Virus genome (UHGV): UHGV-1550841
DNA: 10,154 nt
Direction: 5' to 3' (one strand)
From: a virus
A model generated the notes under the pieces. The model worked only from the letters and a program-made list of their open reading frames with translations. It made no database searches and was not told the DNA's origin. The position numbers were made by a program, and so were the translations under genes. Position 1 is the stretch's first letter; every line of letters begins with the position of its first letter. Shown here one piece after another: positions 6,171 through 9,872 of the stretch.

Positions 6171-6323
6171 TCAGCCCTCCCATATCTCGTTATCGTTGGC
6201 CACATCGCGAGCTTCTTTGCTGACGAAAGCCCACTTAATGCCTTCCTGTAAGGTGCGGAACTTCCAGCTCATGAATCCGCATGCAGTAACGCAGTACCAA
6301 CCGTTGATGATTTTCCACTGCAT
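6171..6323 (-). CDS. Small ORF (50 aa), first gene of the leftward early operon; not N-like
   Basis: Manually translated (below the size cut-off of the ORF track): MQWKIINGWYCVTACGFMSWKFRTLQEGIKWAFVSKEARDVANDNEIWEG. ATG 6323 preceded by GAGGT; stop TGA 6171-6173 sits immediately before the next gene's SD and ATG. Confidence 0.3.
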   Translation of the reverse strand: MQWKIINGWYCVTACGFMSWKFRTLQEGIKWAFVSKEARDVANDNEIWEG

Positions 6324-6342: not shown

Positions 6343-6357
6343 TTACCGTTGGGGTAA
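6343..6357. promoter_or_regulatory. Operator OL-proximal: perfect palindrome TTACC-GTTGG-GGTAA
   Basis: Perfect half-sites. Abuts the proposed -10 of the leftward early promoter. Confidence 0.5.
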
Positions 6358-6385
6358 TAATTATGCGTATCTGGTTTGATGTCAA
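6357..6385 (-). promoter_or_regulatory. PL-like sigma70 promoter for the leftward early operon (-35 TTGACA at 6385-6380, 17-bp spacer, -10 AATTAT at 6362-6357)
   Basis: Consensus -35 hexamer read on the minus strand; 17-bp spacer; moderate -10. Bracketed by two operator palindromes. Confidence 0.4.
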
Positions 6386-6404
6386 TAGATATGAGTTAAA
6401 AAAA

Positions 6405-6419
6405 TTACCCGTTAGGTAA
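6405..6419. promoter_or_regulatory. Operator OL-distal: perfect palindrome TTACC-CGTTA-GGTAA
   Basis: Perfect half-sites, 19 bp upstream of the -35 of the PL-like promoter; centre-to-centre 62 bp from the site at 6343-6357. Confidence 0.5.
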
Positions 6420-6430
6420 TCTAACAGGCA

Positions 6431-6455
6431 ATAAAAAAGCCGCCAGAAGGCGGCT
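6431..6455 (-). terminator. Rho-independent terminator downstream of the repressor gene (minus strand)
   Basis: Stem AGCCGCC (6438-6444) / GGCGGCT (6449-6455) with AGAA loop; on the minus strand it is followed by a run of T (plus-strand AAAAAA at 6433-6438). Confidence 0.6.
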
Positions 6456-6476
6456 TACTTACTGAAAAATATGATT

Positions 6477-7061
6477 TTATTGTTTGTTTTTTTCGTTCTG
6501 GTTGATGACAAATTCAATGTAACTTTCGATCTTTGCTTTCTCGGTTTCGGGTAACAATGCGTAGCGCGAGCGGTCATAGTTGATAGTCGCAGGGTCGTGC
6601 GGGTGAATCAGTAGTTCATAGCCGTGACGCCCGAATGCGGATGCAACATTCTCCAGGGTGGAAATGGAAACGCTGACCTCATTGTTTAACAGGCGGCTGA
6701 TTGTCACCTGGGCGACGCCGGATGCGCGGTGAAGTTTTCCCTGTGTTGAAAGGTCGCGGCTTTCGCTCATCCAGCGTTCCAGGTTGTGAGCCGCCAGCTG
6801 ACCTATATCGCTCGGGCCGACAGGCTGAAAACCCTCCTGAGAAAGCGAACGATCAATATCAAGCCAGTTACGGGGTTTATTGGCGGCAGCTTCAATTTTT
6901 CGCGCAACCTGGTCGCCGATAACCTTCTTGCCAAGAGCCCAGCGGTTTACCAGATTTGCCTGAGTTCCAAGTTTTTCTGCCATCCGCGTCTGAACACCAT
7001 TGAATTCACGGTCGATCAAGTCGTTGAGATTTTGCCTGCGGACGTCCTGGATACTTTTCAT
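6477..7061 (-). CDS. Immunity repressor candidate with two tandem HTH (XRE-like) domains and no recognisable LexA/S24-type autocleavage domain
   Basis: 194 aa. N-terminal HTH-like segment (TRMAEKLGTQANLVNRW) and a second HTH-like segment (LHRASGVAQVTISRLLNNEVSVSISTLENVASAFG). Transcribed divergently from the Cro-like gene; flanked by operator palindromes on both sides and followed by a hairpin terminator. Confidence 0.75.
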   Translation of the reverse strand: MKSIQDVRRQNLNDLIDREFNGVQTRMAEKLGTQANLVNRWALGKKVIGDQVARKIEAAANKPRNWLDIDRSLSQEGFQPVGPSDIGQLAAHNLERWMSESRDLSTQGKLHRASGVAQVTISRLLNNEVSVSISTLENVASAFGRHGYELLIHPHDPATINYDRSRYALLPETEKAKIESYIEFVINQNEKNKQ

Positions 7062-7116
7062 TTTCTGGAAAATCGCCTCATATATGAATCAGTAGATGAT
7101 TCAATTTAAAGCAATA

Positions 7117-7131
7117 TTACCCAACAGGTAA
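7117..7131. promoter_or_regulatory. Operator OR site 1: perfect palindrome TTACC-CAACA-GGTAA
   Basis: Perfect half-sites in the divergent repressor / Cro-like intergenic region. Confidence 0.5.
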
Positions 7132-7133
7132 AT

Positions 7134-7148
7134 GCACCTCATAGGTAA
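7134..7148. promoter_or_regulatory. Operator OR site 2 (imperfect): GCACC-TCATA-GGTAA
   Basis: 8/10 match to the half-site consensus, 2 bp from site 1. Confidence 0.3.
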
Positions 7149-7164
7149 CTATCCTTGATTTTTG

Positions 7165-7179
7165 TTACCTTATGGGTGA
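7165..7179. promoter_or_regulatory. Operator OR site 3 (imperfect): TTACC-TTATG-GGTGA
   Basis: 9/10 match; lies between a -35-like TTGATT (7155-7160) and the Cro-like start. Confidence 0.3.
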
Positions 7180-7215
7180 ATATTTATTATCTGAAATAAA
7201 TATCAGGCAATAGCT

Positions 7216-7446
7216 ATGAGCGATAACGGACATTTCGATTTCAAAAAGCACTGGCTTGCACTTACTCCGGATGAGCGTGAAGCCTTCGCACAGGAAGCCG
7301 GAACGACGAGTCACTATATCCAGACTCACTTAACAGGTAAGCGCAAAATGCCAGGTAAAGTATTGATGAATGGGCTTTTTAAAGCCTGTAAAACAAGACA
7401 ATGGTTGCGCTCAAAAGCAGAACTGGCATACTTCTTCTACTCATGA
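7216..7446 (+). CDS. Cro-like (possibly CII-like) small HTH regulator, first gene of the rightward operon
   Basis: 76 aa. HTH-like segment EAFAQEAGTTSHYIQTHLTGKRKMPGKVLMNG. Position directly divergent from the repressor across the operator cluster. Confidence 0.55.
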   Translation: MSDNGHFDFKKHWLALTPDEREAFAQEAGTTSHYIQTHLTGKRKMPGKVLMNGLFKACKTRQWLRSKAELAYFFYS

Positions 7447-7501: not shown

Positions 7502-7516
7502 GCACCTTAAAGGTAA
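7502..7516. promoter_or_regulatory. Operator-like palindrome (imperfect): GCACC-TTAAA-GGTAA, upstream of the replication genes
   Basis: 8/10 match; same TTAAA spacer as the site at 612-626 and same GCACC left half as OR site 2. Confidence 0.3.
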
Positions 7517-7597
7517 TAAAAAACCAAATATGGTTGATCTTTTTTTTGTGTCAGCACAAAATAACCGTAATCCCAATACTAATAACAGGGCTTACCA

Positions 7598-7812: not shown

Positions 7813-8628
7813 ATGAGCAGACATGCAACAGATTGGGCCTGGGAGACAGATCCAGGTAGCTCGTCATTAAAGCTCATACTGCTCTCGATGGCTGACAGAG
7901 CCGATGAATATAACCTCTGCTACCCCAGCATAGAACGCCTCGTTAAAGACACTTGCCTGAATAAAAAAACCGTGCAGGCCGGGCTTATATCGCTCATGAA
8001 AATGGGGCTTATTTCAGATACCGGAGAGAGAAAGGGAGCGACGAAAAGAGTGCGGGTTTTCTCTCTTAATATAACCAAAAACGGGAACATTAAAGGCAAC
8101 CGGGAAGGGGGTAACGAACCCGAAAACGGTAATGTTACCGAAAACGGGAATATACCCAAAAACGGGATGTTGAATGATCCCAAAAACGGGATGTTGAATG
8201 ATCCCAAAAACGGGATCCAGAACCAGTCATATAACCAGTCATTTAACCAAGAGAGGGAGAGCAGGACAAAAAGCGGGGATTCTGTGCCTCATGACCCCGG
8301 AGCAAACAACGCCGTGATGAATAACTTTGTTCCTCCTGGTGGGCCAGGGCAATTAGGCAAATTTGTCATGCATGAACAATGGCAGCCATCAGATGACTTT
8401 CTTCGGAAAAGCTCATTGCAGGGGATCTACCTGGACAGTCTGCCAACGGCACAGGAACTTGCAGAGTTCAGAATTTACTGGATGGCTGAGGGTAAGGCAT
8501 ACCATCAGGCACAGTGGGAGCAGAAGCTGGCAAGGCGGCTGCAGATTAGCAGACAGAAGCAATCAACATTACCTGATAACAACGTTCCGCACTGGAACAG
8601 CCCTGAAGCATGGGAGGATTTCTTGTGA
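7813..8628 (+). CDS. Replication initiator, lambda-O-like in organisation (N-terminal winged-helix, internal iteron-encoded repeat linker, C-terminal domain)
   Basis: 271 aa. GGAG SD 8 nt upstream of ATG 7813. N-terminal HTH-like region (LKLILLSMADRADEYNLCYPSIERLVKDTCLNKKTVQAGLISLMKMGLI). The central part is encoded by direct DNA repeats (iterons). Directly followed by a lambda-P-like gene. Confidence 0.75.
   Translation: MSRHATDWAWETDPGSSSLKLILLSMADRADEYNLCYPSIERLVKDTCLNKKTVQAGLISLMKMGLISDTGERKGATKRVRVFSLNITKNGNIKGNREGGNEPENGNVTENGNIPKNGMLNDPKNGMLNDPKNGIQNQSYNQSFNQERESRTKSGDSVPHDPGANNAVMNNFVPPGGPGQLGKFVMHEQWQPSDDFLRKSSLQGIYLDSLPTAQELAEFRIYWMAEGKAYHQAQWEQKLARRLQISRQKQSTLPDNNVPHWNSPEAWEDFL
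8076..8218. repeat. Origin-type iterons inside the O-like gene: six copies of an AAAACGG(G) core, including a perfect 24-bp tandem repeat
   Basis: Cores start at 8078, 8123, 8141, 8159, 8183 and 8207. CCCAAAAACGGGATGTTGAATGAT occurs at 8155-8178 and 8179-8202, with a partial third copy at 8203-8218. Followed by the direct repeat AACCAGTCAT x2 (8221-8242). Confidence 0.6.
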
Positions 8629-9447: not shown

Positions 9448-9462
9448 TTACCTATCAGGTAA
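9448..9462. promoter_or_regulatory. Operator: perfect palindrome TTACC-TATCA-GGTAA
   Basis: Perfect half-sites, 19 bp upstream of a -35-like TTGATT. Confidence 0.5.
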
Positions 9463-9481: not shown

Positions 9482-9510
9482 TTGATTTCGTGTCTTATGT
9501 GGTTTTTAAT
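9482..9510 (+). promoter_or_regulatory. Sigma70-like promoter (-35 TTGATT at 9482-9487, 17-bp spacer, -10 TTTAAT at 9505-9510) bracketed by two operators
   Basis: Hexamers and spacing read directly; geometry relative to the flanking palindromes is identical to the PL-like promoter. Confidence 0.4.
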
Positions 9511-9524
9511 TACCTTAGAGGTAA
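9510..9524. promoter_or_regulatory. Operator: perfect palindrome TTACC-TTAGA-GGTAA overlapping the -10, start region and SD of the DUF1064-like gene
   Basis: Perfect half-sites; centre-to-centre 62 bp from the site at 9448-9462. Confidence 0.5.
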
Positions 9525-9527
9525 ATC

Positions 9528-9872
9528 ATGAGAAAACAGATACAGGCTCTTGGTCGACTCAAAACAGGCCAGATGAACAAAACAGAATCTGCGTATTGCC
9601 AGCACCTTGAGCAGCGTAAACGTGCAGGGGAAATCGCCTGGTATCGATTCGAGGGTATCAAGTTGCGGTTAGCTGACAACACGTTCTATACGCCCGATTT
9701 TGCTGTGATGCTCGCCACCGGCGAGATGGAACTGCACGAAGTGAAAGGTTTCTGGACCGACGACGCCAGGGTGAAAACCAAAGTCGCCGCAGATCAGTAT
9801 CCGTTCCGAATCATCGGGGTAACGGTTAAGCCAAAGAAAGCAGGTGGTGGCTGGAACATCGAAGAGTTCTGA
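9528..9872 (+). CDS. DUF1064-like phage protein (small, possibly nuclease-fold)
   Basis: 114 aa. Pattern KTESAY..HLEQRKRAGEI..YRFEGIKLRLADNTFYTPDF...HEVKGFWT resembles what I recall of the DUF1064 prophage family. AGAGGT SD 5 nt upstream of ATG. Confidence 0.5.
   Translation: MRKQIQALGRLKTGQMNKTESAYCQHLEQRKRAGEIAWYRFEGIKLRLADNTFYTPDFAVMLATGEMELHEVKGFWTDDARVKTKVAADQYPFRIIGVTVKPKKAGGGWNIEEF

Follow-up and report, generated by a model that had tools for sequence, protein, structure and literature searches.

The palindrome TTACC-N5-GGTAA that recurs around the repressor gene of the window, i.e. the whole 10,154-nucleotide stretch of viral DNA analyzed here, very probably constitutes the operator of the maintenance repressor Rep, which is encoded on the minus strand at positions 6477-7061. 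This reading, drawn from sequence, is preferred because the sites match what operators would show in position, symmetry, conservation and overlap with promoters; together with the homology of the protein to Rep of phage SPC32H, these features support the preliminary description, in which operators of the repressor (or of the Cro-like protein) were given as the simplest reading. The operator finding is thus correct but already known, since epsilon15 has been annotated with the same motif: its GenBank record (NC_004775; Kropinski et al. 2007, Virology 369:234) labels seven ATTACC-N5-GGTAAT sites as ‘protein_bind’ for repressor / lysogeny, an annotation that is itself a prediction, and the annotated 17-mers match the motif. 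The only points possibly undescribed are the pairing of operators at a distance of 62 bp and the family-wide invariance of the operator. In the literature reached, to which the primary SPC32H and epsilon15 papers did not belong, no description of either point was found, nor any operator-mapping paper for phiV10, Uetakevirus or SPC32H.

An exact search returned all five perfect copies listed earlier (6343-6357, 6405-6419, 7117-7131, 9448-9462 and 9510-9524), and the two near-copies likewise lie where they had been placed, at 7134-7148 (GCACCTCATAGGTAA, two mismatches) and 7165-7179 (TTACCTTATGGGTGA, one mismatch). The chance expectation of about 0.01 was reproduced with 200 dinucleotide-preserving shuffles of the window, which gave a mean of 0.01 against the five observed and a maximum of one in any shuffle. 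When all palindromes with half-sites of 5 or 6 nt and gaps of 0-10 were enumerated without bias, TTACC with a gap of 5 ranked first in the window (five copies, with at most three for every other palindrome), and scans of three independent loci, likewise unbiased, also placed it first among recurring palindromes. As to whether the palindrome might be equally frequent in unrelated host DNA, 200 kb of E. coli chromosome sampled at four distant places contained no perfect and five one-mismatch sites; a resident prophage of the phiV10 type holds 10 perfect sites in ~39 kb. The consensus of 69 distinct sites reads A-TTACC-nnWnn-GGTAA-T, with the leading A present in 60% and the central W in 96%.

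The window comprises the early region of a Uetakevirus of the phiV10 type, which is a podovirus resembling epsilon15. Phages of this type reside as prophages at guaA in many E. coli genomes, and at least 80% of the window is carried by 236 of 5426 complete E. coli genomes; DNA methyltransferases are among the proteins that the phage encodes. The relatives compared include phiV10, the Salmonella phages epsilon15 (NC_004775) and SPC32H, Tyrion, the Klebsiella phage BUCT711, ZX5 and the WWCOL prophage. The motif scan of the phage and related genomes proposed at the outset revealed syntenic TTACC-N5-GGTAA sites in every relative examined (8 perfect sites in phiV10, 11 in epsilon15, similar numbers in SPC32H, Tyrion and BUCT711), the bearers being associated with E. 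coli, Salmonella, Enterobacter and Klebsiella, in addition to a contig known from a Serratia-named protein. All 11 epsilon15 sites and seven of the eight phiV10 sites fall between annotated genes, and across seven genomes the distance of a site to the rep start codon agrees within a few bases. Genome alignments show conserved promoter hexamers overlapped by the operators, with diverged sequence in between, and further copies precede the terminase, the head genes, the ant/tail fibre region and the lysis genes. The centre-to-centre distances between neighbouring perfect sites are confined to a few values: paired sites, drawn from 10 sources, lie 62 bp apart in 17 of 18 cases and 63 bp apart in the remaining one, and spacings of 17 bp and of 75-76 bp were each found three times.

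What kind of protein is Rep? The assignment of this 194-residue product rests on homology, Pfam and predicted structure. It is 100% identical to the repressors of phiV10 and ZX5, and a phmmer search of the PDB aligned its residues 1-190 with SPC32H Rep (5D50_A, E 4e-42), to which it is 42% identical overall and 54% identical in the DNA-binding domain; Foldseek, run on an AlphaFold2 model, ranked 5D50 and 5D4Z at the top. The model comprises an N-terminal four-helix HTH with helix 3 at residues 35-43, a disordered linker (73-84) and a helical C-terminal part. The predicted DNA-binding domain is accordingly the N-terminal HTH (residues 1-70) with the recognition helix ANLVNRWAL (35-43), and the part following the linker would, by the scheme of PMC9986798, consist of a middle dimerisation domain and a C-terminal tetramerisation/Ant-binding domain. 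The label ‘two-HTH repressor’ given in the preliminary description therefore holds for the sequence but not for function, as only the N-terminal HTH is DNA-binding and the second, Pfam HTH_3 (106-147), corresponds to the middle dimerisation domain (PMC9986798). A Pfam scan of Rep returned HTH families only, Peptidase_S24 being absent, and we propose that Rep is an SPC32H-type repressor without SOS cleavage. Phe187 and Phe190, which lie at the tetramer interface of SPC32H Rep, align with Tyr181 and Phe184; all of 30 homologues have Phe at the position of Phe184, and its partner position varies conservatively between Phe and Tyr.

SPC32H Rep binds palindromic DNA as a tetramer in which different dimers supply the DNA-binding domains (PMC9638917), and its domains follow the order DNA-binding, dimerisation and tetramerisation, with the pairs of dimerisation domains ~100 Å apart (PMC9986798). 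Its tie to the exact motif is made via GenBank annotation and secondary descriptions; that Rep of the window would physically bind the palindromes is suggested by two sources, PMC9638917 and the epsilon15 GenBank annotation. In ZX5, overexpression of the identical repressor lowered holin and endolysin transcripts by >99.9% (PMC9782041). The antirepressor also has its counterpart: phiV10, whose repressor is identical to that of the window, carries in p24 a gene with 88% identity to SPC32H Ant, preceded 22 bp upstream by a LexA box (CTGTATAAATACACAG), just as SPC32H has one ahead of ant; the ant gene itself is located outside the window.

The recognition helix has changed little. Its NLVNRW core is invariant in the five phages compared despite an overall Rep identity of only 43%, and among 86 Rep homologues reaching down to 52% identity the sole helix variants were N39S, V38I and L37V. 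Three loci with variant helices, one of them found via a protein that NCBI names Serratia ficaria, keep TTACC-N5-GGTAA; a changed helix with a matching changed palindrome was looked for and not encountered. As the recognition helix of Rep is near-invariant and the HTH of the neighbouring Cro-like protein equally so, sequence alone does not tell which of the two proteins reads the sites.

To the left of rep, two perfect sites accompany a predicted promoter, PL, whose core occupies 6357-6385 on the minus strand (-35 TTGACA at 6385-6380, a 17-nt spacer and -10 AATTAT at 6362-6357, all from a promoter scan). Judged by its consensus and conservation, PL presumably drives the leftward operon, of which the first gene lies at 6171-6323 on the minus strand. 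The proximal operator (6343-6357) shares its first minus-strand T with the last base of the -10 hexamer and would cover the transcription start of PL; in seven genomes neither the block ATTATTACC nor the -35 TTGACA varies. The distal operator (6405-6419) lies 62 bp away, centre to centre, and 19 nt upstream of the -35, and its position is kept in the seven-genome alignment though the flanking sequence diverges. An intrinsic terminator of the repressor transcript, detected by a scan at 6437-6456 on the minus strand (an 8-bp stem with six GC pairs, followed by a T run) and annotated as a terminator in phiV10, separates rep from PL. In the OL / repressor / OR layout envisaged earlier, the left sites do not form a lambda-style tandem array; they are a proximal/distal pair bracketing PL.

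The cluster on the other side of rep comprises three sites whose centres are 17 and 31 bp apart. OR1 (7117-7131) is perfect, lies nearest to the rep start (56 nt from its ATG) and forms part of a block, AATATTACC...GGTAAA, that is invariant in seven genomes. OR2 (7134-7148), 17 bp from OR1, is degenerate in the window (GCACC...GGTAA), and the site in its position is perfect in epsilon15, SPC32H and BUCT711. OR3 (7165-7179), with its one mismatch, occupies the spacer and overlaps the -10 of PR, the predicted plus-strand promoter (7155-7183) of the Cro-like gene, for which we propose -35 TTGATT at 7155-7160, a 17-nt spacer and -10 GAATAT at 7178-7183. This probable assignment draws on the alignment of seven genomes, in which the -35 region TTGATTTTT is invariant, and on the promoter scan, which itself prefers an overlapping candidate, TTGTTA-17-TATTAT, at 7162-7190. 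No convincing sigma-70 promoter for rep was found on the minus strand of 7062-7215, where an invariant TAATAT over OR1 has no usable -35. The Cro-like gene (7216-7446, plus strand) is the first of the rightward operon and encodes 76 residues.

The PL arrangement appears to recur near the right end of the window. A third promoter, predicted from alignment at 9482-9510 on the plus strand (-35 TTGATT at 9482-9487, a 17-nt spacer and -10 TTTAAT at 9505-9510), has a perfect distal operator at 9448-9462 and, 62 bp from it, a perfect proximal operator at 9510-9524, the first T of which is common to the -10; the pair is conserved in all genomes compared. This promoter would drive the DUF1064 gene (9528-9872) and the genes beyond, and the right half of the proximal site reaches into the ribosome-binding site of that gene.

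How might Rep act on such sites? According to PMC9986798, the way in which Rep represses genes ‘has not been extensively characterized’. Tetrameric binding to palindromes and inactivation by Ant are taken from the literature on Rep; the reality of the promoter elements, the bridging of 62-bp pairs by one tetramer and the roles of OR1 and OR2 are what we infer. Two N-terminal HTH domains would read the two half-sites, the centres of which are 10 bp apart, so that a tetramer would offer two DNA-reading units. In the case of PL and of the third promoter, one unit could occupy the proximal operator over the start site, where operator and -10 have a base in common, and the second could bind the distal operator, which lies exactly 62 bp further upstream, such that the promoter would be clamped and RNA polymerase excluded. 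At PR, OR3 would take the spacer and the -10 region, and OR1 and OR2, 17 bp apart and placed toward rep, probably set rep autoregulation. Copies elsewhere would extend direct repression to most phage promoters, and induction would come about when the LexA-controlled small antirepressor Ant, encoded outside the window, disassembles the Rep tetramer.

Generalized, the model holds that one Rep tetramer clamps each strongly repressed lytic promoter via in-phase operators placed 62 bp apart (at the start site and at about -62), that this module occurs at no fewer than two promoters per genome and has stayed constant to the base pair from E. coli to Klebsiella phages, and that operator and recognition helix are invariant family-wide. 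We advance it tentatively, at slightly less than even confidence; a loop as short as 62 bp would require either strongly bent DNA or a flexible protein. Should the invariance of operator and recognition helix be true, immunity specificity would not have been diversified at the level of DNA recognition, unlike in the lambdoid phages. The rigid 62-bp pairing is the one part that could add knowledge, as it offers a concrete, testable DNA geometry for the unusual mode of binding proposed for the Rep tetramer.

Might the palindromes instead be read by the Cro-like protein, either in place of Rep or alongside it with a different order of affinities, as in lambda? This small HTH protein matches PHROG 35 ‘transcriptional repressor’ (E 5.6e-13), its gene diverges from rep across the OR cluster, and its HTH segment (AGTTSHYIQ.HLT), invariant in five phages save for one T/V position, is almost as constant genus-wide as the operator itself; if it binds too, the graded quality of the OR sites would make for a two-protein switch. 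It also shows weak HTH-to-HTH similarity to the N-terminal domain of Rep, with which its HTH can be aligned, but the aligned recognition helices are unlike (NLVNRW in Rep versus HYIQTH), the spread of sites over late, lysis and ant promoters fits a maintenance repressor better than Cro, and the published evidence is about Rep. The Cro-like protein is unlikely as sole binder and may be a second one, and the reading as a whole has a fairly low probability. The distal sites invite another thought, namely that the motif serves a different regulator, e.g. an activator of the PerC-like or gp49/p55 type. At PL, at the third promoter and at a weaker site at 7502 considered below, their centres lie ~60-62 bp upstream of the inferred starts, with the distal sites near -61/-62 corresponding to class-I-type activator positions, and the motif is also found ahead of late operons. 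Class I activators such as CRP use such a position. The proximal partners, however, extend over the -10 and the start site, where binding represses, the density of sites is highest around rep, palindromic sites are attributed to Rep both by the epsilon15 annotators and in the SPC32H work, and nothing ties any other regulator to the motif, all of which makes a different regulator very improbable.

Readings in which the repeats bind no regulator at all (chance, RNA hairpins or terminators, restriction-modification or methylation targets) deserve almost no credence. A hairpin is not without appeal at the distal PL site, which lies within a terminator-like hairpin with a T run (6404-6432, minus strand), but the 5-bp stem and 5-nt loop of the palindrome are too weak for a stable hairpin; similarly, the phage-encoded methyltransferases would suit methylation targets, but the repeats keep a fixed register with promoter hexamers, are almost only intergenic and occur in phages of at least four host genera. 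Chance is contradicted by the expectation of just 0.01 per window and by the absence of perfect sites from 200 kb of host DNA. Geometry and distribution led us to reject the RNA hairpin, terminator and restriction-target readings, and statistics and conservation effectively refute the idea that the repeats are not protein-binding sites.

With Rep as the preferred reader of the palindromes, the window can be set beside better-known systems. It shares with epsilon15 the motif ATTACC-N5-GGTAAT, the genus Uetakevirus and the gene order, as well as a 62-bp pair at the leftward promoter, a site ahead of the gene that follows the replication genes, and sites ahead of the terminase, the head genes and the ant/tail-fibre region. 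The epsilon15 record marks seven of the 11 perfect sites; left unmarked are the two that lie between rep and the cro-like gene and, in the third pair, the proximal member. The window differs from epsilon15 in its degenerate OR2, in the absence of a third leftward site a further 76 bp out, and in its repressor, which is only 42% identical to that of epsilon15. The likeness to the SPC32H Rep/Ant system (Kim & Ryu 2013, J Virol 87:11775; Kim et al. 2016, PNAS 113:E2480; PDB 5D50, 5D4Z) extends from the full-length homologous repressor, with its three-domain layout and no autocleavage domain, to the same palindrome at the same positions of the SPC32H genome and, in phiV10-type relatives, to the 88% identical Ant homologue with its LexA box; one tetramer-interface phenylalanine is replaced by tyrosine in Rep of the window.

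The divergent repressor and cro-like genes with three graded operators between them, the second operator set, which lies past the repressor gene at an early promoter pointing leftward, and the overlap of sites with promoter cores are all reminiscent of lambda CI/Cro. In contrast to CI, Rep has no RecA-stimulated self-cleavage domain, its C-terminal half matching the Rep dimerisation and tetramerisation domains instead, and repressors of the Rep type are inactivated by an antirepressor; moreover, the leftward promoter has a 62-bp pair rather than three tandem sites (OR does have three), operators are found at many other promoters, late and lysis ones included, and Rep is a tetramer with DNA-reading pairs from different dimers (PMC9638917). 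A further system for comparison is Rco of the Bacillus plasmid pLS20, an HTH repressor that works as a tetramer and forms a DNA loop between operators spaced by 75 bp (PMC9986798). Rco and Rep have in common an N-terminal HTH and a p53-like tetramerisation domain, which the Rco authors also see in SPC32H Rep, two operator regions a short distance apart, and an anti-repressor that relieves repression (PMC9986798). The Rco sites are, however, multiple direct repeats and not single palindromes, Rco has no middle dimerisation domain, and looping by Rep is here conjectural.

The map carries the knowledge gained with epsilon15 and SPC32H over to the phiV10 group, where it suggests three to four repressor-controlled promoters in the window and ~10 sites per genome; the public phiV10 record has no operator or promoter annotation, and the ZX5 study merely speculated on a PL operator (PMC9782041). 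The mapped sites offer defined targets for non-lysogenic or inducible derivatives. Engineered phiV10 is in use as a reporter phage that detects E. coli O157.

Two further conserved sites were not on the earlier list, 7502-7516 and 612-626, and an Rfam scan of the whole window gave no matches. The former (GCACCTTAAAGGTAA), which follows the cro terminator, has two mismatches in the window and one in phiV10, and lies 441-443 nt from the rep ATG, with one or two mismatches, in seven of seven genomes. Ahead of the replication genes there is a conserved promoter-like element (TTGATC at 7534-7539 and CAAAAT at 7557-7562), the inferred start of which is ~60 bp downstream of the site; GGTTGATCTTTTTT is invariant, and nothing acceptable as a proximal partner was found 62 bp downstream of the site. 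The latter (TTACCTTAAAGGTAT), a possible extra site with one mismatch, lies ~45 bp upstream of the integrase ORF and recurs, identically placed and with an identical mismatch, in the WWCOL prophage and in all five of the phage genomes examined; the epsilon15 record reads the matching stretch as an RNase III/integrase-binding region.

The window shares 98% identity with Escherichia phage phiV10, ZX5, PAS61, TL-2011b and other relatives, members of the genus Uetakevirus (epsilon15-like podoviruses). Many E. coli genomes carry a prophage of the phiV10 type at the guaA 3' end, and at least 80% of the window is present in 236 of 5426 complete E. coli genomes. Its genes run from a leftmost integrase gene through a leftward early operon (methylase, PerC-like, AlpA-like and recombination genes) to the repressor gene rep (6477-7061, minus strand), followed by a Cro-like gene (7216-7446), a small ORF to its right, the replication genes (DnaT-like, 7813-8628, and lambda-P-like) and a DUF1064 gene starting at 9528.

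All five perfect copies of TTACC-N5-GGTAA claimed in the preliminary description were recovered by exact search of the window (starts 6343, 6405, 7117, 9448 and 9510), against a mean of 0.01 per window and a maximum of one in any of 200 dinucleotide-preserving shuffles. An unbiased listing of short-armed palindromes in the window likewise placed TTACC with a gap of 5 at the top (5 copies, every other palindrome having at most three), which bears out the claim that the sites are not due to chance. Allowing mismatches returned both near-copies already proposed, OR2 (7134-7148, GCACC...GGTAA, two mismatches) and OR3 (7165-7179, TTACC...GGTGA, one), as well as further ones at 7502-7516 (two mismatches) and 612-626 (TTACCTTAAAGGTAT, one mismatch, some 45 bp ahead of the integrase ORF).

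Is this motif a property of the phage family or of its surroundings? Equal frequency in host DNA, which by the preliminary description would have spoken against the operators, is not seen: four 50-kb pieces of the E. coli host chromosome contained no perfect site. The RefSeq record of epsilon15 lists seven features as 'protein_bind: repressor / lysogeny', all of which, once extracted, read ATTACC-N5-GGTAAT, i.e. the window motif. Four perfect epsilon15 palindromes fall outside these features (33341-33372, 35969-35983 and 24704-24718), among them the two that separate rep from the cro-like gene. Whole genomes hold 8 (phiV10) or 11 (epsilon15) perfect sites, with similar counts in SPC32H, Enterobacter phage Tyrion, Klebsiella phage BUCT711 and one guaA prophage; relative to annotated genes, 7 of the 8 and all 11, respectively, are intergenic. 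Sites recur at nearly the same distances from the rep start codon in seven genomes: the leftward pair at about -718 and -656 nt, OR1 (7117-7131) at +54 to +56, OR2 at +71 to +73 (a perfect copy in epsilon15, SPC32H and BUCT711 but a degenerate one in the phiV10 group), OR3 at +101 to +104 (one or two mismatches in every genome), the weak 7502-7516 site at +441 to +443, and the rightward pair at +1637 to +2621 depending on the genome, always with a spacing of 62 bp. Further copies lie upstream of the terminase gene, head operon, ant/tail-fibre divergent region and lysis genes. The 612-626 site, found in the same one-mismatch form and place in phiV10, epsilon15, SPC32H, Tyrion and BUCT711, may serve Rep as a weak binding site for control of int; the corresponding region of epsilon15 is annotated as an RNase III and integrase-binding region. 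The consensus of 69 distinct sites is A(60%)-TTACC-nnW(96% A/T at centre)nn-GGTAA-T.

In alignments of the seven genomes, operators and promoter hexamers are conserved and the intervening sequence drifts. The putative leftward promoter PL (6357-6385, minus strand) reads distal operator, 19 nt, invariant TTGACA, 17 nt, A/GATTAT and proximal operator, the first T of the latter being the last base of the -10, so that the start site would be covered. The same layout recurs at a third putative promoter (9448 site, 19 nt, TTGATT at 9482-9487, 17 nt, TTTAAT at 9505-9510, 9510 site), where the right half of the 9510 site also extends into the ribosome-binding site of the 9528 gene. At the putative rightward promoter PR (TTGATTTTT, invariant; -35 at 7155-7160), OR3 occupies the spacer and runs into the -10. 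A conserved GGTTGATC...CAAAAT element precedes the replication genes, and the 7502 site is as far from it as a 'distal' operator would be; no proximal partner was found for this site. Neighbouring perfect sites from ten sources are spaced by 62 bp (n=17), 63 bp (n=1), 17 bp (n=3) or 75-76 bp (n=3); since 62 bp is about six helical turns, paired sites lie on the same face of the helix. In outline the region is organised as in lambda: the repressor and cro genes diverge, the operators are graded in quality, and another set of operators stands at the leftward promoter. The 62-bp leftward pair and the type of repressor are unlike lambda. A promoter scan and the seven-genome alignment gave no convincing candidate for the rep promoter.

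Two further elements accompany these sites. A terminator-like hairpin on the minus strand (6404-6432; 12-bp imperfect stem, then T7) contains the distal PL operator and follows closely on the strong rep terminator (6437-6456). It may act as a second, back-up terminator, or may be a mere by-product of the palindrome and a conserved T run. A 16-bp palindrome (7191-7206, CTGAAATAAATATCAG; CTG-N10-CAG, LexA-box-like), downstream of the PR -10 and ahead of the cro-like start codon, could be a second regulatory site, for Cro or LexA; it occurs also in phiV10, in the guaA prophage and in Tyrion (CTGACATAAATATCAG), but not in the epsilon15 group.

The 194-aa Rep is 100% identical to the phiV10 and ZX5 repressors and matches SPC32H Rep over its full length (PDB 5D50, E 4e-42). 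An AlphaFold2 model built on 30 homologues (mean pLDDT 76) has an N-terminal four-helix HTH domain (helices 4-19, 24-31, 35-43 and 50-59), from which a disordered linker (73-84) leads to a C-terminal half made up of helices, its closest PDB structures being 5D50 and 5D4Z. Pfam finds HTH_3 only at residues 106-147, a YdaS-type HTH at 21-61 below threshold, and no self-cleavage domain. Rep is organized into N-terminal DNA-binding, middle dimerisation and C-terminal tetramerisation domains, the last also binding the antirepressor Ant (PMC9986798). The 'two-HTH repressor' of the preliminary description thus does have a second HTH match, but under this scheme it is the dimerisation domain and not a second DNA reader. 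Tetrameric Rep binds palindromic sites and dimers bind weakly, the DNA-binding domains that read one palindrome coming from different dimers, and Ant, itself a tetramer, breaks the Rep tetramer (PMC9638917, summarising primary work). In ZX5, overexpression of the identical repressor abolished free phage and lowered endolysin and holin transcripts by 99.99% and 99.97%, in a study without operator mapping (PMC9782041).

The system is the Rep/Ant switch of epsilon15-like phages, and the reading of the sites as repressor operators is supported with refinements: their number exceeds chance, they are conserved, nearly all of them lie between genes, they keep register with promoters, and they stand beside the gene of a Rep homologue. 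One Rep tetramer, which carries two DNA-reading units and is removed by Ant (PMC9638917, PMC9986798), may hold each 62-bp pair and thereby enclose its promoter; OR3 would block PR, OR1 and OR2 would govern rep expression, and direct repression would reach late and lysis promoters through the many further sites. Within the tetramer, about 100 A separates the paired dimerisation domains (PMC9986798), and 62 bp of straight DNA measures about 210 A, so the predicted bridging would need DNA bending and the flexible linker. The induction arm (Ant plus LexA box) is present in close relatives: phiV10 gene p24 is 88% identical to SPC32H Ant, though the repressors of the two phages are just 42% identical, and a LexA box precedes the p24 start by 22 bp. 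In both phages (phiV10 20543-20891, SPC32H 19676-20027) the ant gene is closely preceded by a LexA box and, about 55 bp farther out, by a Rep-type palindrome, so that ant may be under dual LexA and Rep control.

Could another protein read these sites? The Cro-like protein (PHROG 35) has an HTH nearly as invariant as the operator, and may be a second binder sharing sites with Rep, as lambda Cro does with its repressor; that it is the sole reader is unlikely, however, because its recognition helix differs from that of Rep and the genome-wide spread of sites better suits a maintenance repressor. That an activator binds at -62 conflicts with the placing of the proximal sites, which overlap start points. 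Chance, RNA structure and restriction targets were also considered as readings of the palindromes, and are ruled out by statistics and geometry.

Covariation of motif and helix is uninformative here because the motif is invariant, and the helix nearly so, in the homologues and loci compared. Helix 3 has N..RW in every one of the 86 Rep homologues, the most distant being 52% identical, and three divergent rep-homologue loci (L012, L013 and L014), one found via a protein NCBI-named Serratia ficaria, carry the same palindrome and usually the 62-bp pairs. Across these loci and genomes L002-L007 (epsilon15, phiV10 and SPC32H among them), the recognition helix is almost invariant, a single operator sequence prevails and no heteroimmune operator variants were found; lambdoid phages, by contrast, have such variants. 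Family members bear the NCBI names Escherichia, Citrobacter, Lelliottia, Raoultella and Serratia, and their phages infect E. coli, Salmonella, Klebsiella and Enterobacter.

The finding of these predicted operators is correct and already known at family level: the epsilon15 annotation predicts the same motif, and the SPC32H repressor, a homologue of Rep, is structurally characterised. Public records of the phiV10 group carry no operator annotation. The base-pair-exact 62-bp pairing at two promoters per genome and the lack of operator diversification across the family might be undescribed, and neither is claimed as new.

Inside the DnaT-like replication gene, an iteron-like tandem array (8118-8249) combines repeats 18, 24 and 12 bp long, of which the 24-bp one, CCCAAAAACGGGATGTTGAATGAT, is present in 2.6 copies at 100% identity; the array is probably the phage replication origin, placed within the initiator gene as in lambda.
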